Assembly: GCA_018261615.1 (NCBI GenBank)
Contig: JAGTSE010000017.1
Coordinates: forward strand, 2,239-66,238
DNA from: Pseudomonadota bacterium
Lineage (GTDB): Bacteria; Pseudomonadota; Gammaproteobacteria; Enterobacterales; Enterobacteriaceae
Length of the DNA: 64,000 nt
Direction: 5' to 3'
Shown: in pieces, positions 45,256 through 56,179 of the stretch
Position numbering within the stretch: the first letter of the stretch is position 1
Layout: each line of letters begins with the position of its first letter
Program-made: the position numbers and the translations under genes
Notes under the pieces: model-generated
What the model was told of the DNA's origin: nothing
The model's input: only the letters and a program-made list of their open reading frames with translations
The model's database searches: none

Positions 45256-46047
45256 ATGCAAACAATTGACTTTTATATGGTGGACGCGTTTAGCGACCAA
45301 ACTTTTGGCGGCAATGCCGCTGCCGTATGTCCGCTTACCGAATGGCTACCTGACGATCTGCTGCTGAAAATGGCGCAGCAGCATAATCAATCCGAGACAG
45401 TGTTTTTTGTCCGCAATGACACCGGATTTGAGCTGCGCTGGTTTACCACGCAGGCGGAAATTAACCTTTGTGGACATGCCACACTTGCCGCCGCGCACGT
45501 GATTTTTGAGTATCTGAATTACCCGGCTACGGAAATTCTCTTTGCTACCCGTTTTGTCGGTCCGCTGACAGTAACGCGTAACGGTGACTGGCTAACGCTT
45601 GATTTTCCGGCCTGGGCGACGCAAGAAATAAGCACGCCGCCGGAACTGTTGTTGCAAACGCTGGGCATCAGCACGGCGAAAGAAGTGCGTGCGGCGCGGG
45701 ATTATCTGGTAGTGCTGGAAAACCAGGCGCAGGTGGAAGCTTTGCGGCCGGATATTGCCGCCATGAAGCCGCTGGAAAAAATGGTCTGCGTGACCGCGCC
45801 TGGGGATGATTACGATTTTGTCAGCCGTTTTTTCTGTCCGGGCGAATCGGTGGCGGAAGATCCAGTGACCGGCTCGGCACACAGCATGTTGATCCCGTAC
45901 TGGGGGGATAAGCTGAATAAAACGGTGATGCTGGCGCGGCAGGTCTCTGCACGCGGCGGCGATTTACGTTGTGAATGGCGCGGCGACCGCGTGCTCATCG
46001 GTGGTCAGGCGACGCTCTATCTGTTAGGGAAAATCTTTCTGCGCTAG
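45256..46047 (+). CDS. PhzF/PhzC-family isomerase
   Basis: VDAF..GGNAAAV, QSET, LCGHATLA, EDPVTGSAH. Confidence 0.9.
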   Translation: MQTIDFYMVDAFSDQTFGGNAAAVCPLTEWLPDDLLLKMAQQHNQSETVFFVRNDTGFELRWFTTQAEINLCGHATLAAAHVIFEYLNYPATEILFATRFVGPLTVTRNGDWLTLDFPAWATQEISTPPELLLQTLGISTAKEVRAARDYLVVLENQAQVEALRPDIAAMKPLEKMVCVTAPGDDYDFVSRFFCPGESVAEDPVTGSAHSMLIPYWGDKLNKTVMLARQVSARGGDLRCEWRGDRVLIGGQATLYLLGKIFLR

Positions 46048-46164: not shown

Positions 46165-46842
46165 TTATGTTAATGATGCGCCGCCGCAGATCACCAGTTC
46201 CTGGCCGGTAATAGCTGCGGCATCCGGCGAGAGCAGAAACCCCACCAGCGCAGCGACTTCCCGCGGCACGATCAGCCGACCAATCGGCGGTACATTTGGC
46301 GGCGAGCTTTCCCGTCCTGGCGCACTGAGCATCGGCGTTTGCGTGGCCCCTGGCGAGACCACATTGGCGGTGATCCCGCGCGGAGCCAGCTCTGCCGCCC
46401 AACTTCTTACCATCCCGACCAGCGCCGCTTTGGTAGCAACATATTGCGAACGCCCGGCGGCACCGCGCGAGGTACGGCTACCAATCACCACAATCCGTCC
46501 TCCTGGTTGTAGCTGCGGCGCAAAGTGGTTAACCAGCGTTTCGGTGGCCTGCACATGCAGCCGCCACAGGCGCTGGCTGATTGTCGCGTCCAGTTCGCCA
46601 AGTGGCGCGGCAGCCATCACTCCGGCGGCATGGATCACCGCCTGCGGCGTTTCCACCCCGGTGAGCACCTGGCGCAACGCCAGATCATCGCTTAAATCTA
46701 CTTGCAGGCTGCGAAACGCAGAAGGAGTCCGCTCAACCTGCGAGCGTGAAAGCCCGGTGACCTGCCAACCCTGCGCCAGTAAGTTGTCGACAATGGCTTC
46801 GCCAATTCCGGAACTGGCGCCAGTAACCACGGCATGCGGCAT
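46165..46842 (-). CDS. SDR-family oxidoreductase
   Basis: VTGASSGIG, YVATK (YxxxK), NVVSPG. Confidence 0.9.
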   Translation of the reverse strand: MPHAVVTGASSGIGEAIVDNLLAQGWQVTGLSRSQVERTPSAFRSLQVDLSDDLALRQVLTGVETPQAVIHAAGVMAAAPLGELDATISQRLWRLHVQATETLVNHFAPQLQPGGRIVVIGSRTSRGAAGRSQYVATKAALVGMVRSWAAELAPRGITANVVSPGATQTPMLSAPGRESSPPNVPPIGRLIVPREVAALVGFLLSPDAAAITGQELVICGGASLT

Positions 46843-46846
46843 GATA

Positions 46847-47317
46847 TTAACCCTCCAGCAGCGCGCGCGGCACTTTGAATACCGCTTTACGCACGATCAT
46901 CGGTTCATTCACCGCGCACAGCGCCTGATGCGGCTCGCCGGGAAGAAACACGGCGAAATCCCCGGCGCGCAGCGTCACGCTCACCGGCAATGTGGCGGTG
47001 GTGGTGATATACAAATCCGGCTTGCGCTGTTCATCACTCTCCTGTGCCAGATACAGTGCTCCGGCATTAATCCTCTCCTCGCCGTCCAGCACCACCTGAA
47101 TATCTGCCCATAACTGGTGATATTCGGTGTGGCGCTGCGCCTGCGGTTGGGTATTCGCCAGGCCGATATTGCAAAACCACTCAGCCTGTTCTGGCTGCAA
47201 ACGCCCGTCGTCGTGTGCCTGAAGCGCTGCCAGCGAACACTGTGGCAGTGCCAGGATATTGCGCAGCGCAGTGGGAAGCCCTGCCTGCGGCAGGGCGTTC
47301 AGATTACCTAAAATCAT
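46847..47317 (-). CDS. YhcH/YjgK/YiaL (NanQ-like, DUF386) protein
   Basis: MILGNL, TEYHQLWADIQ, GDFAVFLPGEPH. Confidence 0.88.
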   Translation of the reverse strand: MILGNLNALPQAGLPTALRNILALPQCSLAALQAHDDGRLQPEQAEWFCNIGLANTQPQAQRHTEYHQLWADIQVVLDGEERINAGALYLAQESDEQRKPDLYITTTATLPVSVTLRAGDFAVFLPGEPHQALCAVNEPMIVRKAVFKVPRALLEG

Positions 47318-47320
47318 CCG

Positions 47321-48490
47321 CTACTCCTTCACCCACGCCGGAGAAACGCGCACATATTTGATGGCCTGACGGAACCAGGTATAAGCAATGTGCAGATCGC
47401 CATCAGCGCCCTGTTTGATGCTGGGGTAAGAGAACTCGCGGTTGAGTTTTTCCTGCGAGTTGTTGGTCATGCAGTAGCCATCGCCTTCATCCAGATTGCG
47501 CTGCCACGGCCAGCTTTTACCGCCATCCGGCGAGATAGCCACGGTCATTGGCGCGCGCGGTGCCCCCCAGAAGGCGCTGCGCTCGCTGGTGACCGTCGGT
47601 TCTTTACGTCCGTCGCCATCGTCGATCTCATCATAAAGCGAGGCGCGGCGTTCAGTAGCCCCGGCGGCGCTCATGTGGTTAAACACTAGCGCCAGCGCGC
47701 CATCGGTCAGCGTGGTTACCTGAATCGACGAGTTGTTGTTCGGCAATACTGTCGGTTCAGGTACCGACCAGCTTTCACCGCCATCCGTGGAGTGGCTGTA
47801 ATAAATATTGTCCGCCCAGCGACTGCGGAACAGTGCCACCAGCGTACAGCCGGGCAGGGCTGTGATATTCATATGTACGCAGCCAAGGCTTTGTGGTACT
47901 TCCACATCGCGCCAGCTTTTACCCTGATCGGCGGAGATTTTTACCGCGCTGATATCGTCATTGCCGACCCATTTTTCACCCGGCTGAGTGCGGCAATAGA
48001 ACACCGGCAGCAGCCAGTTTCCATTCGCCAGTACGGTAATCGGCTGGCGAATAAAGGTGCCGGGTTTGTCCAGCAGCGTGCCGATTTCCCCCCAGCTTGC
48101 ACCAAAGTCAATCGACTGGCGATAGCGCACAATGGCGGTGTCCTGATTGCCGGAGATCTGGGCCGTCCATAGCAGCCACAGCGTTTTATCCGGTGCGAGG
48201 AACAGCACCGGGTTCTGCTCGGAGCGCGTTGGATCGTCCGAGAGTTTCACCGCTTCGCTCCAGCGCTGCGTGCCCGGCGCAAGGCGCGAACCGTAGACAG
48301 AAATATCCGCGACGCCTTCTTGTGAGCCACCGAACCAGACGCAGAGTAGCGTGCCATCCGGCAGTGGCAGAATATTTGCCGCATGATTTTGCGGGCAGGG
48401 TGACGGCAACATCGCTGTGATAATACGCGCGTCGTGCGGTTGCGGGCGTAAAACACCATCGCGATTAGTAGCGGGCATATCAGACTCCAT
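47321..48490 (-). CDS. BNR-repeat (sialidase-like) beta-propeller hydrolase, no signal peptide
   Basis: Four Asp-boxes SIDFGASW, SADQGKSW, STDGGESW, SPDGGKSW; C-terminal FSYPS. Confidence 0.85.
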   Translation of the reverse strand: MESDMPATNRDGVLRPQPHDARIITAMLPSPCPQNHAANILPLPDGTLLCVWFGGSQEGVADISVYGSRLAPGTQRWSEAVKLSDDPTRSEQNPVLFLAPDKTLWLLWTAQISGNQDTAIVRYRQSIDFGASWGEIGTLLDKPGTFIRQPITVLANGNWLLPVFYCRTQPGEKWVGNDDISAVKISADQGKSWRDVEVPQSLGCVHMNITALPGCTLVALFRSRWADNIYYSHSTDGGESWSVPEPTVLPNNNSSIQVTTLTDGALALVFNHMSAAGATERRASLYDEIDDGDGRKEPTVTSERSAFWGAPRAPMTVAISPDGGKSWPWQRNLDEGDGYCMTNNSQEKLNREFSYPSIKQGADGDLHIAYTWFRQAIKYVRVSPAWVKE

Positions 48491-49904
48491 TGTGTTGAAC
48501 AGGTTGAGACGCGTGAGAACTGGCTTTGTGCTGTGCTCTGTTGGGGATCAGGCGGTCCAGCGCCATGATCACCGCCGGGGTAATCAGCGCGATATACATA
48601 TTATTGATGCCAAACGGATCGCCGAGCAGATACCAGACAGAGGTCACCACGCAGGCGCCAATCAGTCCGGCGTTCGCGCCACGGGTGCTCTTAAAGAACG
48701 GCGCATAGAAAGCAATAATGGCGACCACGGAAATCGACAGGCGAATAGCGCGGGTGAAGAAAGAGAGCTTCAACACTTCCGGGACAAACAACACAAAAAT
48801 CAGTGGCAGGAAACCAATCAGTAGCGACAGCCAGCGCGTGGCTTTAAATTCCTGTTCCGGCGTTGGATTGCGGTAGGGGACGTAAAAATCTTTCACTACC
48901 AGCGAGGCGATAGCCAGCGCAACGGTACTGACGCTGACAAAGATAGATGCAACAAGTGACGTTGTCACTAAACCGGCAACCCACGGATTCATATCCTGTA
49001 GGAAAATCGGCATTGCATACAGACTGTTGATTCCTGGATGCAGGTATTTCGCTGCCACGCCAATCACCGCAATTGCCAGCGCAATCGGTAGGCAGAAGAA
49101 GAATGCCACCCAAGTGGAACGCTTCGCCGATTTCACATCTTTAGTCGAGCAAATCGCCTGAATCACAAACTGGGTACAAAAGATGGAACCGATGGTGCCA
49201 ATCAGCCAGGCAAAGATAGTGCTGGCACCGAAGTTACCGTCCCAGGTCCAGTAGTATTTTGGCATGTTTTCGATCATCGGCGTGAAACCGCCGGTTTTCG
49301 ACAGGGCAAAGCCCATGATCGCCAGAATACCGAAATATTTCAGCGCGCTGTGCAGCAGCGTCACCCACGCCACGCCTTTCATGCCGCCGAACGCGAAGTA
49401 AAACGTACTGACAATGGCAGTGATAAACGCCGCCACCGGCAGATTCACTTTCAACACCGTCGAAATTGCCGCTGCGCCGCTAACGTAGTTGCCGACGTTC
49501 ACCAGCAGCAGGGCGTAGATCATGATGATGGAGATAATGTTTTTCGTGCTGTTGCCGTACTTCTCGGCAATCGCGCCGGAGATGGTGATCTTGCCGGTGT
49601 TATAGATGCGTTTTACCAGCAGAAAGCCAAACAGCGGGAAGCCGATCGCCGCGCCGATCACCGACCAGGAGGCGGCAAAGCCATCCTCAAACGCCGCCTG
49701 CGCGGTGCCGACCGTAGATTTTGCGCCGATGTATTCAGACATCAACAGGATGCCGACGATAAAGGCAGGCATCGCACGCGAGCCTTCCATAAAATCGCCG
49801 GTGTTCTTACTGCGTAAACGGAATGTCAGCCAGGTGGTAAACAGAATGTAGGCCACCACAATGCCGACGATGATAAGGGTATCTTGAGATGTAAAGGTGT
49901 TCAT
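48480..49904 (-). CDS. Sodium:solute symporter (SSS) family transporter
   Basis: 474 aa multi-TM; DFMEGSR, SEYIGAKSTVG, YFAFGGMKGVAW. Confidence 0.88.
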   Translation of the reverse strand: MNTFTSQDTLIIVGIVVAYILFTTWLTFRLRSKNTGDFMEGSRAMPAFIVGILLMSEYIGAKSTVGTAQAAFEDGFAASWSVIGAAIGFPLFGFLLVKRIYNTGKITISGAIAEKYGNSTKNIISIIMIYALLLVNVGNYVSGAAAISTVLKVNLPVAAFITAIVSTFYFAFGGMKGVAWVTLLHSALKYFGILAIMGFALSKTGGFTPMIENMPKYYWTWDGNFGASTIFAWLIGTIGSIFCTQFVIQAICSTKDVKSAKRSTWVAFFFCLPIALAIAVIGVAAKYLHPGINSLYAMPIFLQDMNPWVAGLVTTSLVASIFVSVSTVALAIASLVVKDFYVPYRNPTPEQEFKATRWLSLLIGFLPLIFVLFVPEVLKLSFFTRAIRLSISVVAIIAFYAPFFKSTRGANAGLIGACVVTSVWYLLGDPFGINNMYIALITPAVIMALDRLIPNRAQHKASSHASQPVQHNGV

Positions 49905-49979
49905 CTTTGCCTCTCTTCAGGGCGAGTGAATCCGGGGCGCCTGTAGCGCCCGGTTTTCTTATGACGAATGACTCCGCAA

Positions 49980-50864
49980 TCAGTGAAGGTATTGCGTCAC
50001 TATTTGGCGGATCTGTTGTAATTGTTGTTCGCTAAACGTGACGGCGTAACGGCTGTCGCCAACGTCATATCCCATGATTTGTAATGCTTTTTTGACCGCG
50101 GCGGGAGAAAACGCCACGTTGTACAAGTCGGTGCGCAGCCCAGTGACGCTCTCCTGCGCCGTGCGGGAACCGGGGATATCCCCGGCGGTAAAACGTGACC
50201 AGATGGCATTGATAGCCTGCGGCGCAACGTTCGCCAGCCCGGAAATACAGGCTGAACAGCCATCGACAAATCCCTGATGGATCAGTGAGTCCGGGCCGTT
50301 TAACACATCGAAATCGCTAATATCGTCAACCGCATGCAAAAAACCGCTCAGGCTCTCATAGCTGCCCGCACTGTCTTTGATGCCGATGATATTCGGGTGC
50401 GCCGCCAGCGTGCGTGCGGTCTGCGGTTCGATAGTGTTGCCGGTACGTGCCGGGATGTTGTAGAGAAAAACCGGCACGCTCAACGCGTCCGCCACGGCGG
50501 TGTAATGGGCAATAAGTTCATCCTGCTTCAGCGGCACGAAATAGGGTGTGATCACCGAAACAGCATCGACACCGAGCTTTTCAATCTCTTTGCCCAGACG
50601 AACGGTTTCCCACGTCGAGATCTCGCCAATATGCGCCACCACTGGCGCGCGCCCGGCGACTTCATCGACGCAGGTGGCGGTGATGGCCACTTTTTCCTGC
50701 GCGTTCAGCACGAAGAATTCGCCATTGGTACCGCCGCAAAAGATGCCGTTTCCAGCATCAAGCTGGAGATTGAGCTGCTGTTTTAGCGCCTGCGGGTTGA
50801 AAGCGCCCCCGGCGTCAAAAGGCGTGATAATGGCGGTCAGTACGCCTTTTATTGGTTTGTTCAT
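49980..50864 (-). CDS. DapA/NanA-family class I aldolase
   Basis: TAIITPF, GTNGEF, LYNIPARTG, Schiff-base IGIKDS. Confidence 0.9.
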   Translation of the reverse strand: MNKPIKGVLTAIITPFDAGGAFNPQALKQQLNLQLDAGNGIFCGGTNGEFFVLNAQEKVAITATCVDEVAGRAPVVAHIGEISTWETVRLGKEIEKLGVDAVSVITPYFVPLKQDELIAHYTAVADALSVPVFLYNIPARTGNTIEPQTARTLAAHPNIIGIKDSAGSYESLSGFLHAVDDISDFDVLNGPDSLIHQGFVDGCSACISGLANVAPQAINAIWSRFTAGDIPGSRTAQESVTGLRTDLYNVAFSPAAVKKALQIMGYDVGDSRYAVTFSEQQLQQIRQIVTQYLH

Positions 50865-50881
50865 CACAACTCCTCTGTTTG

Positions 50882-50907
50882 CGCCGGATGGCGGCTGCGC
50901 CATCCGG
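50882..50907. repeat. REP-like hairpin
   Basis: GCCGGATGGCG-gctg-CGCCATCCGGC. Confidence 0.65.
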
Positions 50908-50922
50908 CAATCAAGTCATGCA

Positions 50923-52059
50923 TTAAAACAACGTTTGATAAATTGCCTGTACATCCTCGTGACTGACGGCGCAGGGCGCGTTATTCATCAACCGCTTAAC
51001 ATTGAGTGCCGCATCACTCAGCGCCGGGATATCGGCACGCGGCACGCCGAGCGCTTCGAGGTTGTCCGGCAGATTCAGGCGCTTCACCAGGGCTGCAAAC
51101 CATGCCACCAGCGCATGGGATTTCTCTTCTGCGCTCAGTGAGGTGTCTGCGTCGGGCAGCAGATCCCACACCCGCGCGAATTTCTCCACGGCGTGCGGGC
51201 GCACCACTTTCATGCATGGAGCGAGCAGAATGGCGTTCGCCACGCCGTGCGGCAGGTGATATTTGCCGCCCAGCGGATAAGAGAGCGCATGTACCAGATG
51301 GGTTCCGGCATGAGTAATCGCCGCGCCGCCATAATAAGAGGCCCACAGCATCTCCAGCCGTGCGTTCAGGTTGTGCGGTTCATTGATTGCGGTTTCGATA
51401 TTGCGCAGCAGCTTGTGCAGACCGATTAGCGCGACGTTATCGCTGACCGGATTGGCGATCGTGGCGGTAAAGCACTCAATCAGATGGCACAGCGCATCGA
51501 TGCCGGTCGAAGAGGCAATGTGCGCGGGCATGCTGGTGGTCAACTCCGGGATCAGCGCCACGTAATCTGGCAGCATCACTGGTGAAATGATGCCGATTTT
51601 GGTGTCCTGCTCAGGAATGGCCAGAATAGAATTCGGCGTGGCTTCCGAGCCGGTACCAGCCGTGGCCGGGATCAGCAGTGAGCTGATGCGCGCAGTCGGC
51701 TTCTCGCCTTTCAGTAGCGCATCAAGACCCGGTGACGCTGGGTGGCACTGCACGGAGAGAAGCTTCGCTACATCCAGCACGCTGCCACCGCCAATGCCTA
51801 CCACCAGGTCAAATGCAGTGATGTGTAATGTACCGACAATTTTCGCGACATCATGCTGGCTCGGCTCCGGCGGTACATTGTCAATCAATTGAACGTACCT
51901 GCCATCGCTCTCCAGCAGGGCGCGAATCTGTTGTGTCGCTGCGAGCTTAACAATGTTGCCGTCGCTGACCAGCAGGACGTTCTTTTTACCGGCCAGCAGC
52001 GGAGCAATCGCTGGAATCGCCCCCGCGCCGCTAATCAGTGTGCTGTTAATGGTTACCAC
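50923..52059 (-). CDS. Iron-containing alcohol dehydrogenase family protein
   Basis: GGGSVLD, ATAGTGSE, DALCH, HAGTHLVHALS, PHGVAN. Confidence 0.92.
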   Translation of the reverse strand: MVTINSTLISGAGAIPAIAPLLAGKKNVLLVSDGNIVKLAATQQIRALLESDGRYVQLIDNVPPEPSQHDVAKIVGTLHITAFDLVVGIGGGSVLDVAKLLSVQCHPASPGLDALLKGEKPTARISSLLIPATAGTGSEATPNSILAIPEQDTKIGIISPVMLPDYVALIPELTTSMPAHIASSTGIDALCHLIECFTATIANPVSDNVALIGLHKLLRNIETAINEPHNLNARLEMLWASYYGGAAITHAGTHLVHALSYPLGGKYHLPHGVANAILLAPCMKVVRPHAVEKFARVWDLLPDADTSLSAEEKSHALVAWFAALVKRLNLPDNLEALGVPRADIPALSDAALNVKRLMNNAPCAVSHEDVQAIYQTLF

Positions 52060-52083
52060 AACTTTCTCCTGTCTCTGTTATGG

Positions 52084-52205
52084 TGATTAATCTCAATCAT
52101 CAGATGGCAATCACGGTCACTACATGGCCTAAATTTATAATTTATTCGCAAAATGAATAAGTTGATCTTGCTCACATATAATCAATAATGATTGAATATA
52201 ATCAT
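52084..52205. promoter_or_regulatory. Divergent promoter with two TGATT-N6-AATCA palindromes and a CRP-like site
   Basis: Palindromes at 52084-52099 and 52189-52204; GTTGA-N6-TCACA at 52161-52176. Confidence 0.55.
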
Positions 52206-52233
52206 ATCCAGAGCATAATGACCCGGAGAAGGG

Positions 52234-53481
52234 ATGAACGAACAACTGGTGGTGAAAGAGGTTGTGATCCTCGCGGATGATTTCACTGGCGCGAACGACG
52301 CCGGTGTCAGCCTGGCGCAGGCGGGCATGCACGTTGAAGTAGCGCTGACGGCAGGTTACGCAAGCCAGGCGCAGGCGCTGATCTACAACAGCGACAGCCG
52401 GGCGCTGACGGCCCTGGATGCCGCCGCGCGTATTCACGCGCTGACTGCGGAGATCAGCACCCATTACGCGCCGCGCTGGTTAGTGAAAAAAATCGACTCC
52501 ACCCTGCGCGGCAATGTCGGTGCGGAAGTTGCCGCCATGATGCAGACGCTGCAGGCAGCGGCGGCCGTTATCGCCCCGGCGTTTCCACAGGCAGGGCGCA
52601 CCACCCACAACGGGCAGTGTTATGTGCAGGGCGTGCTGCTGACGGAGACCGAATTTGCCAGCGACCCGAAAACACCTGTGCAAAGCGCGGATATCGGCAA
52701 CCTGTTGGCGCTGCATAGCTCGGCGGAATGTCGCTATCTGCAACCGGCGCAACTGGCGGAAGCACTGGCGCAGGCAACCATGGATGTGCCGCAATTACTG
52801 ATTGTGGATGCGCAGACCGATGCCGATCTCGACCTGATTGTGGCCCAGGCGACACGCGCCGCCACGACGCCGCTGCTGGTGGGATCCTCTGGGCTGTGCG
52901 ATGCGCTGGCACGCCATCTGGCGCCGCAAAAACCGCCTGCACTGCTGGCGATAATTGGCTCCATGAGCGAAATCGCTCAACAACAACTGGAGCAGGCCGC
53001 AACGCATCCGCGCGTGACGCGTCTGCTGATTGATGCTGATGCGGCATTGGGCGCGGAGAGTGTGTCATACCGGCAGGCGATTATTACCGCGCTGTGTGCT
53101 GGCGGTCACTGCCTGGTGCATACCTGCCCGGATGTGCAGGCGCGGCATCAAATTGCTGCGCTGTGCGCCCGTCGCGGCCTGAGCCGCAGCGAACTGGGTG
53201 AGCAAATTTGCGCATTTCTGGCGCAATTGACGCGCGAGGTACTGAGTGAGGTAACGCCCGCAGCGCTCTATCTTTCCGGTGGCGATGTTGCCGTGGCGGT
53301 GGCGCAGGCGCTGGGGGCGAGTGGTTTTCATATTCAGGGGCGAGCCGCAGGTTGCGTGCCCTGGGGCTATTTTACAGGTTGCGAGTGGCAACGACCGGTG
53401 ATGACCAAGGCGGGTGGCTTTGGCGACAAAACGACCTTGCTTAAGGTTCTGCATTTTATTGAGGAGAAATCGAGTGACTAA
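52234..53481 (+). CDS. dtnK: Four-carbon acid sugar kinase (DUF1537; D-threonate kinase-like)
   Basis: ADDFTGAND, KKIDSTLRGN, SGGDVA, TKAGGFG; coupled to pdxA2 and DeoR. Confidence 0.85.
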   Translation: MNEQLVVKEVVILADDFTGANDAGVSLAQAGMHVEVALTAGYASQAQALIYNSDSRALTALDAAARIHALTAEISTHYAPRWLVKKIDSTLRGNVGAEVAAMMQTLQAAAAVIAPAFPQAGRTTHNGQCYVQGVLLTETEFASDPKTPVQSADIGNLLALHSSAECRYLQPAQLAEALAQATMDVPQLLIVDAQTDADLDLIVAQATRAATTPLLVGSSGLCDALARHLAPQKPPALLAIIGSMSEIAQQQLEQAATHPRVTRLLIDADAALGAESVSYRQAIITALCAGGHCLVHTCPDVQARHQIAALCARRGLSRSELGEQICAFLAQLTREVLSEVTPAALYLSGGDVAVAVAQALGASGFHIQGRAAGCVPWGYFTGCEWQRPVMTKAGGFGDKTTLLKVLHFIEEKSSD

Positions 53482-54460
53482 TATCATTGCTGTAACGATG
53501 GGCGACCCGGCGGGTATTGGCCCGGAGATCATTATTAAATCGCTGGTCGAAGGAGAGTTATCCGGTGCGCCGGTGGTGGTGGTGGGATGTGCGCGTACCT
53601 TCCAGCGCATTCTGGCGATGAATATTACGCCACGTGCGGAACTGAAGGTCATTGACCGGGTTGCCGATACGCGTTTTGCGCCGGGCGTGATCAACGTCAT
53701 TGATGAGCCGCTGGACGATGCCGATGCGCTACAACCGGGCGTGGTGCAGGCGCAGGCGGGCGATCTGGCGTACCGATGTATCAAACGCGCGACCGCGCTG
53801 GCGATGAACGGTGAGGTAAAAGCGATTGCTACCGCGCCGCTGAATAAAGAGGCGCTGCATCTTGCTGGGCACCACTATCCGGGTCATACCGAACTGCTGG
53901 CGCATCTGACCGACAGCAAAGATTACGCAATGGTGCTTTACACCGATAAGCTGAAAGTGATCCACATCACTACGCATATTGCGCTGCGGAAGTTCCTCGA
54001 TACCCTCAATCAGGATCGCGTAAAAACCGTTATTCGCATTGCGGATACATTCCTCAAACGCGTCGGCTACAATAACCCGCGCATAGCCGTTGCCGGGGTT
54101 AACCCGCACGCCGGCGAAAACGGTCTGTTTGGTGATGAAGAGATCAACATTGTCGGCCCGGCGGTAGATGCCATGAAAGCGGAAGGGCTGAATGTTATCG
54201 GACCGTGCCCACCGGATACGGTGTTTATGCAGTGCCACGAAGGGATGTATGACATGGTGGTGGCGATGTACCACGATCAGGGACATATTCCATTAAAATT
54301 GCTGGGATTTTACGATGGCGTTAATATCACCGCGGGTCTGCCTTTTATCCGTACCTCGGCGGATCATGGCACCGCATTTGATATCGCCTGGCGTGGCAAA
54401 GCGAAAGCAGAGAGTATGGCGGTATCCATCGAGTTAGCTATGCAAATTACACGGGAATAA
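53474..54460 (+). CDS. pdxA2: D-threonate 4-phosphate dehydrogenase (PdxA2)
   Basis: [37 protein letters not shown]; GTG start overlaps the kinase stop. Confidence 0.88.
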
Positions 54461-54461
54461 T

Positions 54462-55223
54462 ATGAAGGGATATAACCGGTTAGAGCAGATAATGGATTAC
54501 CTGAAAGGGCATAATCTGGTGACGGTGGATCAACTGGTTGCGGCAACCGATGCCTCGCCAGCCACCATTCGCCGCGATTTGATTAAACTCGATCAGGAAG
54601 GGGTTATCAACCGCACTCACGGCGGCGTGACGCTAAACCGGTTTATCCCCTTGCAGCCTACCACCAGCGAGAAAATGCAGCGTAACCTGGCGGAGAAACA
54701 CGCCATTGCCTGCGCGGCAGCGGCGCTGGTGAAAGCGGGGGACGCCATTGTACTGGATGCCGGAACGACGATGATTGAACTGGCGCGCCAGTTAACCCAT
54801 CTGCCGCTGCGGGTGATCACCAGCGACCTGCATATCGCGCTGTTTCTCTCGGAATTTAAGCAGATTGAAGTGACAATTATCGGCGGACGCATTGATGACT
54901 CCAGCCAGTCGTGCATTGGCGAGCACGGACGCAAGCTGCTGCAAAATATCTGGCCGGACTGGGCGTTTGTCAGCTGCAACGGCTGGGATTTTGAACGTGG
55001 CATTACCGCGCCTACGGAGGAAAAAGCCGCGCTGAAGCATGATCTGATCGTCAATGCAAAGCGGCGGGTGTTGCTGGCCGACAGTAGCAAATATGGCGCA
55101 TGGTCGCTGTTTAACGTGGCGAAACTCGATTCGTTGACGGATATCATTACTGACGCACAGCTCAGTCCCGAGCTCCGCCAGCAGCTTGCAGTGTTGCCAG
55201 GGCGGCTAACCATAGCCGGTTAA
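54462..55223 (+). CDS. DeoR/GlpR-family transcriptional regulator
   Basis: [12 protein letters not shown]; LDAGTT. Confidence 0.92.
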
Positions 55224-55234
55224 CCGCACGGGCT

Positions 55235-56179
55235 TCAGGGCAGGCGGGCGATATTGGCTTTAATGACCGCGACGGAGTGATTGAATTTAGCCACTTCGTC
55301 ATCTTCCAGTTGTAACTCAATAATCTGCTGGACGCCGCTTTGCGTCAGCACGGCAGGTACGCCAATTGCCACATCTTGTACGCCGTATTCTCCGTCAAGA
55401 ATGCAGGAGATCGCCAGCGCGCGGTGGCTGCCGGTAAAGATATTACGGCAGATCTCGGCGATAGTCCCTGCAATGCCGTACTCGGTGCAGCCTTTGCGGT
55501 TGTAGATCTCAAAGCCATGGCGGCGCACTTTTTCTGCCAGTGTGTCGAAATCTAAGGAGTGTCCGGTTTTGCGCAGATAGACATCGGCAATCGGCGAACC
55601 GTACACCGACGAGTGCGACCACACTGGAAATTGCGTATCGCCGTGTTCGCCGAGAATAAACGCATCAATACTTTGTGCACCAATATCCAGCGCTTGCGCC
55701 AGCGTACGACGCAAGCGTGTGGTATCCAGCCAGACGCCGGTACCGATCACCTGGCTACGCGGCAGGCCGGAGAGTTGCCACACTTGCCAGGTAATAATGT
55801 CGCACGGGTTGGTGGCGATAAGGAAAATACCGTTAAAACCGTTGGCCATCATCGATGGGACGATTTTTTTGACGATCCGCGCCGTGTTGGTCAACTCATC
55901 CAGCCGCGTCTGGCCCGGCTGTAATGGGCCGCCTGAGACAGTAATGACTGCAATGTCGATATCGGCGCACTCTTCCACCGGGCGTGTGGAGATGGTCATC
56001 ATGCCGGGCATATACGCGGCGGCATCTGCCAGATCCTGAACGTGGCCTTCCACACGCTGCTGATTGAGATCGACGAGGATCAACTCCTCGCAAATGTTTT
56101 GGTTCAGCAGGGCATACGCGGCGGACGCGCCCACATTTCCTGTACCGATAATCATCACCTTACGGGCTTTGGTATTCAT
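55235..56179 (-). CDS. LDH/MDH-family 2-hydroxyacid dehydrogenase
   Basis: GTGNVG, PGQTRLD, TNPCD, LDTTR, GEHGD. Confidence 0.9.
   Translation of the reverse strand: MNTKARKVMIIGTGNVGASAAYALLNQNICEELILVDLNQQRVEGHVQDLADAAAYMPGMMTISTRPVEECADIDIAVITVSGGPLQPGQTRLDELTNTARIVKKIVPSMMANGFNGIFLIATNPCDIITWQVWQLSGLPRSQVIGTGVWLDTTRLRRTLAQALDIGAQSIDAFILGEHGDTQFPVWSHSSVYGSPIADVYLRKTGHSLDFDTLAEKVRRHGFEIYNRKGCTEYGIAGTIAEICRNIFTGSHRALAISCILDGEYGVQDVAIGVPAVLTQSGVQQIIELQLEDDEVAKFNHSVAVIKANIARLP

Follow-up and report, generated by a model that had tools for sequence, protein, structure and literature searches.

The window that we analyzed is a 64,000-nt stretch of contig JAGTSE010000017.1 (assembly GCA_018261615.1), and all positions are numbered along it. 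It contains an island of nine genes (46165–55223) in two divergent arms (Table 1). We propose that the two arms encode a single catabolic pathway: the left arm would take up a sugar acid and convert it to pyruvate and D-threonate, and the right arm would consume the D-threonate. An open reading frame (ORF) map, along with profile searches of Pfam and NCBIfam, confirmed the nine genes, their families, and their coordinates as given in an initial annotation. The initial annotation also recognized that the arms diverge from a shared control region, but this region is 174 bp long instead of 175 bp. The ORF listing had pdxA2 starting at GTG 53414, but ATG 53477 agrees better with the family model, and a start there overlaps the stop codon of dtnK. 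The gaps between the genes of the left arm range from -11 to 75 nt, which fits a single operon.

Table 1. Genes and control region of the island, with lengths and supporting family models.
Feature	Position	Strand	Details
Short-chain dehydrogenase/reductase (SDR)	46165–46842	minus	225 aa; adh_short_C2
YhcH/DUF386 (YhcH/YjgK/YiaL)	46847–47317	minus	156 aa; PF04074, TIGR00022
BNR_2 sialidase-like protein (BNR)	47321–48490	minus	389 aa; PF13088, 220 bits
SSS sodium:solute symporter	48480–49904	minus	474 aa; PF00474
DHDPS/NAL-family class I aldolase	49980–50903	minus	307 aa; PF00701, 208 bits
Iron-containing alcohol dehydrogenase, group III (Fe-ADH)	50923–52059	minus	378 aa; Pfam Fe-ADH and ADH_Fe_C
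Divergent control region	52060–52233		174 bp; two TGATT-N6-AATCA palindromes
DtnK, DUF1537 kinase	52234–53481	plus	NF047819
PdxA2	53477–54460	plus	NF002891; start ATG 53477
DeoR regulator	54462–55223	plus	HTH_DeoR, DeoRC

DtnK and PdxA2 convert D-threonate to its 4-phosphate and then to dihydroxyacetone phosphate (DHAP) and CO2. This catabolic module was reportedly described by Zhang et al. in 2016 (PNAS 113:E4161), in the Salmonella-type operon kdgT-dtnK-pdxA2-deoR. The DtnK of the island scores 547 bits against the equivalog model NF047819 (cut-off 450 bits), and its orthologs from E. coli and Pantoea score 533 and 545 bits. PdxA2, which is paired with this DUF1537 kinase, scores 674 bits against NF002891 (cut-off 583 bits). 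These scores bear out the original suggestion that both proteins are of the D-threonate type; we predict that DtnK is a D-threonate kinase that acts at O-4.

The right arm resembles the stand-alone D-threonate operons in that it is the same module with the same operator (see below), and its PdxA2 is 76–78% identical to theirs. It differs in its more distant kinase (38–41% identity) and in the divergent operon for the aldolase and Fe-ADH, which is absent from the stand-alone operons. Furthermore, the stand-alone operons carry a KdgT-family permease, while the carriers of the island are all in the left arm. Because the right arm lacks a permease, unlike the kdgT-bearing operons, D-threonate is probably made inside the cell, as an internal intermediate. 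We found no explanation of the natural source of D-threonate in the accessible literature.

If the left arm supplies D-threonate, then its genes should co-occur with dtnK-pdxA2 across genomes, which had been set as a test beforehand. We collected 80 loci around homologs of the BNR protein from contigs of Enterobacterales (one genome per species) and searched each locus with the nine proteins from the window. The test was passed: both arms were present in 63 of the 80 loci, and 44 had all nine genes in unchanged order. Another 10 loci (from E. coli, the Klebsiella oxytoca group, Kluyvera, and Pseudocitrobacter) have SLC13 and TerC proteins that stand in for the SSS symporter, and these loci lack the SDR. 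The 17 loci without both arms have a front end by itself, SSS-BNR-(YhcH)-SDR; 15 of these loci are from Pantoea and two are cut by the ends of contigs. All 15 Pantoea with the isolated front end have a DtnK ortholog elsewhere in the genome, and all eight Pantoea genomes that we inspected have an intact core module, with aldolase and Fe-ADH divergent from DtnK-PdxA2-DeoR. The Pantoea arrangement thus reveals two modules: a core that is never split, and a front end that is separable yet is kept in the same genome. The SDR, which had initially been viewed as a peripheral gene of the left arm, is instead part of this conserved front end. In Pantoea, the core module is extended by a D-2-hydroxyacid dehydrogenase and a major facilitator superfamily (MFS) carrier, and Erwinia likewise adds both, which suggests that the substrate can enter in a second form. 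In the genus that the window comes from, the island is accessory. BNR, the aldolase, and DtnK are each present in 6 of 20 species, and these six are identical for all three.

Across phyla, the gene set is kept while its order is shuffled. Co-directional operons from Burkholderia, Methylobacterium, Priestia, Paenibacillus, and Bacillus encode BNR homologs with 62–67% identity. The orders are DHDPS-FeADH-DUF1537-PdxA-SSS-BNR-DeoR-SDR in Burkholderia ambifaria; DUF1537-PdxA-FeADH-DHDPS-SSS-BNR-SDR in Methylobacterium nodulans; a sigma-54 activator and then DHDPS-FeADH-DUF1537-PdxA-SSS-BNR-(YhcH)-SDR in Priestia endophytica and Paenibacillus kribbensis; and DHDPS-FeADH-SSS-BNR-PrpR-DUF1537-PdxA in Bacillus altitudinis, where the SDR is on the other strand. 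A gene set that is kept in shuffled order is a classic signature of functional coupling. With its recurrence in these phyla and in 63 of the 80 loci, the arrangement is far from random. Also, on a metagenomic contig (L125), an HpcH/HpaI-family (GarL-type) aldolase lies beside BNR in place of the DHDPS type, with PdxA-DUF1537 and SSS nearby. This non-orthologous displacement supports the aldolase step.

The control region contains two copies of the palindrome TGATT-N6-AATCA, at 52084–52099 and 52189–52204. They are 105 bp apart, and the motif has no other match in the window. Each intergenic region between Fe-ADH and dtnK that we examined has at least one exact copy, and often two that are ~105 bp apart. 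In all 15 Pantoea loci with an isolated front end, the motif lies 200–330 bp upstream of the SSS gene, and it is the only match in each 21-kb locus. The motif is also found directly upstream of kdgT in the stand-alone kdgT-dtnK-pdxA2-deoR operons of two other genera, as well as upstream of cluster-adjacent kdgT genes in Kalamiella and Erwinia aeris. Overall, there are 147 matches in 2.08 Mb of loci, as compared to ~2 expected for a 10-base palindrome. The DeoR protein of the island is orthologous to those of the stand-alone operons (70–75% identity), and we propose that the palindromes are its operators. Most simply, both modules would be under the control of one repressor that responds to D-threonate, its presumed effector. 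(Scans of the island for promoters and terminators found sites no more frequently than in shuffled sequence.) Together, the linkage, the conservation across phyla, and the shared operator strongly support the idea that the two arms are one pathway, and we are quite confident that they form one unit.

None of the proteins of the left arm reaches the cut-off of any NCBIfam equivalog. The DHDPS-family aldolase scores 185 bits against the dapA model TIGR00674 (cut-off 206 bits), and it scores 150 and 117 bits against the NanA models NF003164 and TIGR00683 (cut-offs 281 and 382 bits). By these scores, it is neither DapA nor NanA. The same genome encodes a separate, canonical DapA on contig C2 (L117, with the motifs YNVPSRTG, IVGIKEATG, and TPYY). 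The Schiff-base Lys176 of the aldolase (IIGIKDS) aligns with K161 of this DapA, Tyr148 aligns with Y133, and Arg153 (YNIPARTG) lies at the position of Arg138. In DapA, Arg138 binds aspartate semialdehyde, which is a C4 aldehyde-acid (PMC4977564), and the substitution L142R at the same position of NanA shifts that enzyme towards DHDPS activity (PMC3014015). Arg or Lys is present at this position in all 10 of the cluster aldolases that we aligned across phyla. Similarly, a motif scan of 76 aldolases found R or K in 75, and the unmatched copy (YTIPAKAG, from Burkholderia) has Lys there. A basic residue at this position is consistent with a C4 aldehyde-acid as the product, which would make the substrate a C7 diacid. 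As a side observation, the aldolase ortholog from one species of the same genus (G015:C1:2583391-2584287) has an in-frame TGA, so it may be a pseudogene or contain a sequencing error.

The best NCBIfam match of Fe-ADH is to lactaldehyde reductase, with 213 bits. This is far below the cut-off of 523 bits, so Fe-ADH belongs to an unassigned subfamily. In every locus type and phylum with a DHDPS-type aldolase, Fe-ADH adjoins the aldolase. Comparative genomics strongly supports the original proposal that a DapA/NanA-family aldolase and Fe-ADH feed the route via DtnK and PdxA2. We also considered a scheme in which Fe-ADH is oxidizing, the SDR is a threose dehydrogenase, and BNR is a lactonase. We rejected it as the main reading: the E. 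coli/Klebsiella variant retains Fe-ADH without the SDR, and Fe-ADH is always tied to the aldolase.

As for the front end, the SSS protein is presumed to import the substrate. It matches no equivalog, and it is 52–61% identical to the BNR-adjacent SSS proteins of Firmicutes, Burkholderia, and Methylobacterium. YhcH is a member of the broad YhcH/YjgK/YiaL family (99 bits against TIGR00022, cut-off 45.5 bits) and scores below the cut-off for NanQ (102 bits against NF040884, cut-off 160 bits), so it is a candidate NanQ-like anomerase or ring-opener. It is present in most of the loci and is missing from some of the versions in Pantoea, Burkholderia, and Bacillus. The SDR has intact TGASSGIG and S122/Y134/K138 motifs, and it adjoins or is near BNR in Pantoea, Burkholderia, Methylobacterium, Priestia, Paenibacillus, and Bacillus.

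No NCBIfam model matched BNR. It contains four Asp-boxes (S-x-D-x-G-x-x-W), and its AlphaFold2 model is a six-bladed propeller (pLDDT 93). The best Foldseek matches are GH33 sialidases (TM 0.70, 13–17% identity), and the top 50 matches are all sialidases or sialidase-derived propellers, one of which is a designed protein (4j9t). Searching the PDB with the single sequence gave marginal matches (E ~ 0.005). A profile of the family did better, and its best match was the GH181 sialidase of Akkermansia muciniphila (Amuc_1547; PDB 8AXI; E = 3e-11). R222 and R312 of BNR align with arginines that are retained in GH181 (R234 and R305), and Y355 falls at the site of the nucleophile, where GH33 enzymes have Tyr and GH181 has Gln (the GH181 residues are from PMC10067855). 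BNR shares the six-bladed propeller and the Asp-boxes with the known sialidases, and two of its arginines align with active-site arginines of the GH181 enzyme, but the relationship is remote, and unlike them BNR has no domain resembling a carbohydrate-binding module. It also has no signal peptide: its N terminus (MESDMPATNRDGVLRPQPHD) lacks a hydrophobic signal sequence, in contrast to the secretion that is typical of bacterial sialidases. We propose that BNR is a cytoplasmic ulosonic-acid ketosidase or a related enzyme.

Our overall proposal is as follows. The front end (SSS, BNR, YhcH, and SDR) would import a small acidic compound of the 3-deoxy-2-ulosonic-acid type, or a ketoside of it. Cytoplasmic BNR would cleave a ketosidic or anhydro bond to free the keto-acid, and YhcH would speed the interconversion of anomers or the opening of the ring. 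The class I aldolase would then split the keto-deoxy acid into pyruvate and a C4 aldehyde-acid (D-threuronate), which Fe-ADH would reduce to D-threonate. DtnK would phosphorylate D-threonate at O-4, and PdxA2 would oxidatively decarboxylate the 4-phosphate to DHAP and CO2. The DeoR regulator would act at TGATT-N6-AATCA, probably by sensing D-threonate or D-threonate 4-phosphate. The substrate would be a C7 2-keto-3-deoxy diacid, and the leading candidate is 3-deoxy-D-lyxo-heptulosarate (Dha) from rhamnogalacturonan-II (RG-II) or from algal walls, either free or as a small ketoside. The reactions of DtnK and PdxA2 are taken from the literature; we infer every reaction of the left arm, as well as the identity of the substrate, from the families, conservation, linkage, and operator motif described above. 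We estimate a probability of roughly 60% that the island encodes one DeoR-controlled pathway of two modules with this D-threonate-feeding chemistry.

Several observations weigh against this proposal. First, the kinase pair (DtnK/PdxA) is not near the cluster in B. paralicheniformis or Telmatospirillum, and Fodinisporobacter pairs the aldolase with subunits that resemble class I fumarase or tartrate dehydratase. In Fodinisporobacter ferrooxydans (L120, 2440–10158), we see an ABC transporter, a 192-aa fragment of BNR, a DHDPS-family gene, alpha and beta subunits of the fumarase/tartrate-dehydratase-like enzyme, and a full-length BNR, with no Fe-ADH, DUF1537, or PdxA. In this cluster, the C4 fragment may follow a route of the tartrate type. 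Second, the kinases of the distant operons match the DtnK model best but score below its cut-off (200–308 bits), so the stereochemistry of the C4 compound in those bacteria is unproven. Third, the Arg at the DapA-138 position of the aldolase is not diagnostic, because an unrelated DHDPS paralog from the same genome (L118, at G000:C9 ~8805–9668, motif FAYNFPARTG) also has it. (L118 is an unrelated keto-deoxy acid locus; the paralog adjoins a permease that resembles KdgT, with 47% identity to the KdgT of a D-threonate operon.) Fourth, the SDR has no job in the Dha scheme, and if Dha is free then neither does BNR, yet both are conserved.

The mechanism of BNR raises further difficulties. BNR lacks the FRIP motif, and in the alignments His206 takes the place of the Glu that partners the nucleophile, while His36 takes that of the first Arg of the triad. 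The absence of FRIP and the apparent replacement of the Arg and the Glu mean that hydrolase activity is not assured. Of the initial description of BNR as sialidase-like, the fold stands, but BNR does not appear to be a canonical sialidase. From the alignments, the invariant His36 or Arg374 may fill the site of this arginine, and BNR is plausibly a sialidase-fold enzyme with a rewired site that still binds the carboxylate of a 2-ulosonic acid. Also, SSS carriers usually move monosaccharide-sized solutes. A disaccharide or oligosaccharide substrate therefore fits badly with an SSS carrier, which makes the BNR step puzzling. BNR might act on a ketoside of very small size, or else on an anhydro or 2-ene compound, much as 2,7-anhydro-N-acetylneuraminate is handled.

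Dha is a C7 diacid sugar of pectin RG-II and of the scales of green algae, and we know of no other natural C7 2-keto-3-deoxy diacid. When we worked through the stereochemistry by hand, the argument that had been made for Dha held: cleavage and reduction turn C5 and C6 of the D-lyxo compound into C3 and C2 of D-threonate. Genomic context offers some hints of pectin. In five Pantoea loci, the front-end module has GH28 and an ABC transporter as neighbors; in B. altitudinis, the cluster adjoins UxaA and GH28; and in B. paralicheniformis, a pectinesterase is 2 kb from the cluster. Many of the bacteria with the island are plant-associated (Pectobacterium, Dickeya, Erwinia, Pantoea, and Kosakonia), and the SLC13 carrier of the E. 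coli variant is of the di/tricarboxylate type. Homologs of BNR with N-terminal extensions are found in the green algae Mesostigma, Chlorokybus, Cymbomonas, and Pyramimonas, and the scales of Mesostigma are mainly 3-deoxy-D-manno-octulosonate (Kdo), 5-O-methyl-Kdo, and Dha (PMC1413533). Taken without a statistical test, the pectin-related neighbors, the plant-associated bacteria, and SLC13 are suggestive of pectin, and the neighbors and the algal homologs point to sugars of the Kdo/Dha type. We rejected Kdo itself, as well as 2-keto-3-deoxynononate (Kdn), N-acetylneuraminate (Neu5Ac), 3-deoxy-D-arabino-heptulosonate (DAH), 2-keto-3-deoxygluconate (KDG), and 5-keto-4-deoxyuronate, as splitting off pyruvate from any of these leaves no C4 acid. 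On the other side, Dha is a very minor sugar in plants. The case for Dha is circumstantial, and although it is the best candidate, we put it forward tentatively, at clearly less than even odds. The same caution applies to the complete route, in which Dha, or a small Dha ketoside handled by a new family of sialidase-fold enzymes in the cytoplasm, would be converted to pyruvate and D-threuronate, and the latter to D-threonate, D-threonate 4-phosphate, and finally DHAP and CO2. This would be the first catabolic pathway for Dha: we found no bacterial pathway for it in the literature that we searched. According to a 2026 preprint on RG-II, heating for a short time frees side chain D (Araf-Dha), and the pathways for several of the sugars that are released from RG-II are unconfirmed in other microbes.

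We also considered that the pathway and its back end are correct but that the substrate is another heptulosaric or ulosonic acid from plants, algae, or bacteria, an oxidized derivative of Kdo, or an anhydro or unsaturated form that BNR and the SDR would convert ahead of the aldolase. This would give the conserved BNR and SDR, which are jobless if the substrate is free Dha, something to do, and it would suit the monosaccharide-sized solute suggested by the SSS carrier. The D-2-hydroxyacid dehydrogenase and MFS carrier that Pantoea and Erwinia add, the tartrate-dehydratase-like genes in Fodinisporobacter, and a GarR-like dehydrogenase gene that lies beside SSS and BNR in another locus (L123) could also be explained. 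However, no natural alternative to Dha of this type is known to us, D-lyxo stereochemistry yields exactly D-threonate, and the pectin-related neighbors and the algal homologs point to Kdo/Dha-type sugars. We consider a different substrate to be unlikely, though well worth keeping in mind.

Could the island instead be two independent systems that share a promoter region, namely an operon for sialic acid, Kdn, or Kdo and an ordinary D-threonate operon? The left arm is superficially similar to nan operons (with an aldolase, YhcH, SSS, and a sialidase fold), and stand-alone D-threonate operons do exist. But this seems inconsistent with the co-occurrence of the two arms in shuffled order across phyla, with their shared phyletic pattern within a genus, with an operator that is common to both modules even when they are unlinked, and with a right arm that has no permease. 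Also, the aldolase and YhcH fall below the cut-offs for NanA and NanQ, and the island lacks NanK and NanE. The initial view that this is no pathway for Neu5Ac is strongly supported. We think that there is very little chance that the arms are independent.

Another idea, which Thiaville et al. reportedly put forward in 2016 for the pair, is that DUF1537 and PdxA2 recycle toxic 4-hydroxy-L-threonine into vitamin B6 synthesis; the left arm would then make or handle an amino-sugar acid from which 4-hydroxythreonine is formed. In the portion of Thiaville et al. (2016) that is recounted by PMC12928451, homologs of sialidase, dapA, and adh from S. meliloti are clustered with PdxA2/DUF1537, and citing papers also credit that study with the claim that PdxA2 is able to catalyze the reaction of PdxA. 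Later literature, in contrast, treats PdxA2 as a catabolic enzyme for organic acids. Furthermore, the kinase and the dehydrogenase score above the equivalog cut-offs for D-threonate, the regulator and operator are shared with kdgT operons, and the presence of transporters and the distribution of an accessory island fit a nutrient pathway. Recycling for vitamin B6 is highly improbable. Finally, the DHDPS-family enzyme could be a dehydratase/decarboxylase of the KdgD type, which is in the same superfamily, acts on a keto-deoxy diacid, and gives a weak NCBIfam match (91–123 bits) but would not form pyruvate and a C4 aldehyde; this is just as hard to credit, because the enzyme scores higher to the models for dapA, nanA, and HpaI-like aldolases, an HpcH/HpaI class II pyruvate aldolase fills its position in one lineage, and a C4 kinase needs a split into C3 and C4.

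The pathway that we propose, of one DeoR-controlled route into D-threonate, is not described in the literature that we searched, but its enzyme families are known and its logic is familiar. Like the nan system for sialic acid, it would rely on these superfamilies to import a 3-deoxy-2-ulosonic acid, release it, open its ring, and split it by pyruvate-aldol cleavage. It differs in that the aldolase, YhcH, and SSS are below the cut-offs for the nan equivalogs; NanK, NanE, and NagA/B are absent; the protein with the sialidase fold is cytoplasmic, and its catalytic residues appear altered; and the product would be a C4 acid instead of N-acetylmannosamine. In the GarL/GarR/GarK route, a keto-deoxy diacid is likewise cleaved to pyruvate and an aldehyde-acid, followed by reduction and then a kinase. 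In the island, however, the substrate would be one carbon longer, there is an extra decarboxylating dehydrogenase, and the enzymes are not homologous: DHDPS replaces HpcH (although an HpcH-family aldolase does occur in the variant on L125), Fe-ADH replaces a beta-hydroxyacid dehydrogenase, and DUF1537 replaces glycerate kinase.

The homologous island of E. coli is known as genomic region GR6 (nagE..glnS) of the extraintestinal pathogenic (ExPEC) strain BEN2908, to which the paper on that region assigns no pathway (PMC12928451). It has the same core genes, but with SLC13 and TerC instead of SSS, without the SDR, and at a different chromosomal site, between nagE and glnS. It is found in 1,050 of 5,426 complete E. 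coli genomes (~19%), where it marks B2/ExPEC lineages; E. coli K-12 does not have it. If our proposal is correct, then an internal feeder pathway would supply a natural source of D-threonate, the function of the nagE-glnS island in B2 (extraintestinal pathogenic) E. coli would be explained, and the sialidase superfamily would gain a new branch of intracellular enzymes, represented by BNR. Plant-associated Enterobacterales, Burkholderia, Bacillus, and Paenibacillus commonly carry the island, and it is also present in E. coli, so its function bears on the colonization of both plants and the gut.

In the window, the island is flanked by marC-MFS-PhzF on one side and by an Ldh-family gene, AraC, and cfa on the other, and many Enterobacteriaceae carry it at the identical marC-MFS-PhzF/Ldh site. 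In Pantoea, the core module adjoins acnB. The closest orthologs of BNR are from Kosakonia, with 96% identity for K. sacchari. The Ldh_1-family lactate/malate dehydrogenase gene (55235–56179, minus strand) is convergent with deoR and lies 12 bp past its stop codon. It is kept beside the island in 18 loci from several genera, including the SLC13 variant, so it may be either a member of the island or a conserved flank. On the other side, the PhzF-family gene is at 45256–46047 (plus strand), and many related loci have two tandem PhzF paralogs here.

We also noticed some variation in where the cluster is found. It is plasmid-borne in Pantoea allii (pA, L043) and P. ananatis (pPANA1, L046); with no match to DtnK or DeoR in the pPANA1 locus and no match to DeoR in the pA locus, the cluster may be partly eroded on these plasmids. 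In Bacillus paralicheniformis and B. altitudinis, a siderophore/B12-type ABC importer (Peripla_BP_2, FecCD, and an ATPase) is directly upstream of, and co-directional with, DHDPS-FeADH-SSS-BNR. And in Pantoea rwandensis (L055, 1560–8329), the isolated SSS-BNR-SDR module adjoins an ABC sugar transporter and GH28, along with a divergent pair of genes that encode an Iso_dh-family protein (similar to tartrate/D-malate dehydrogenase) and a LysR protein.

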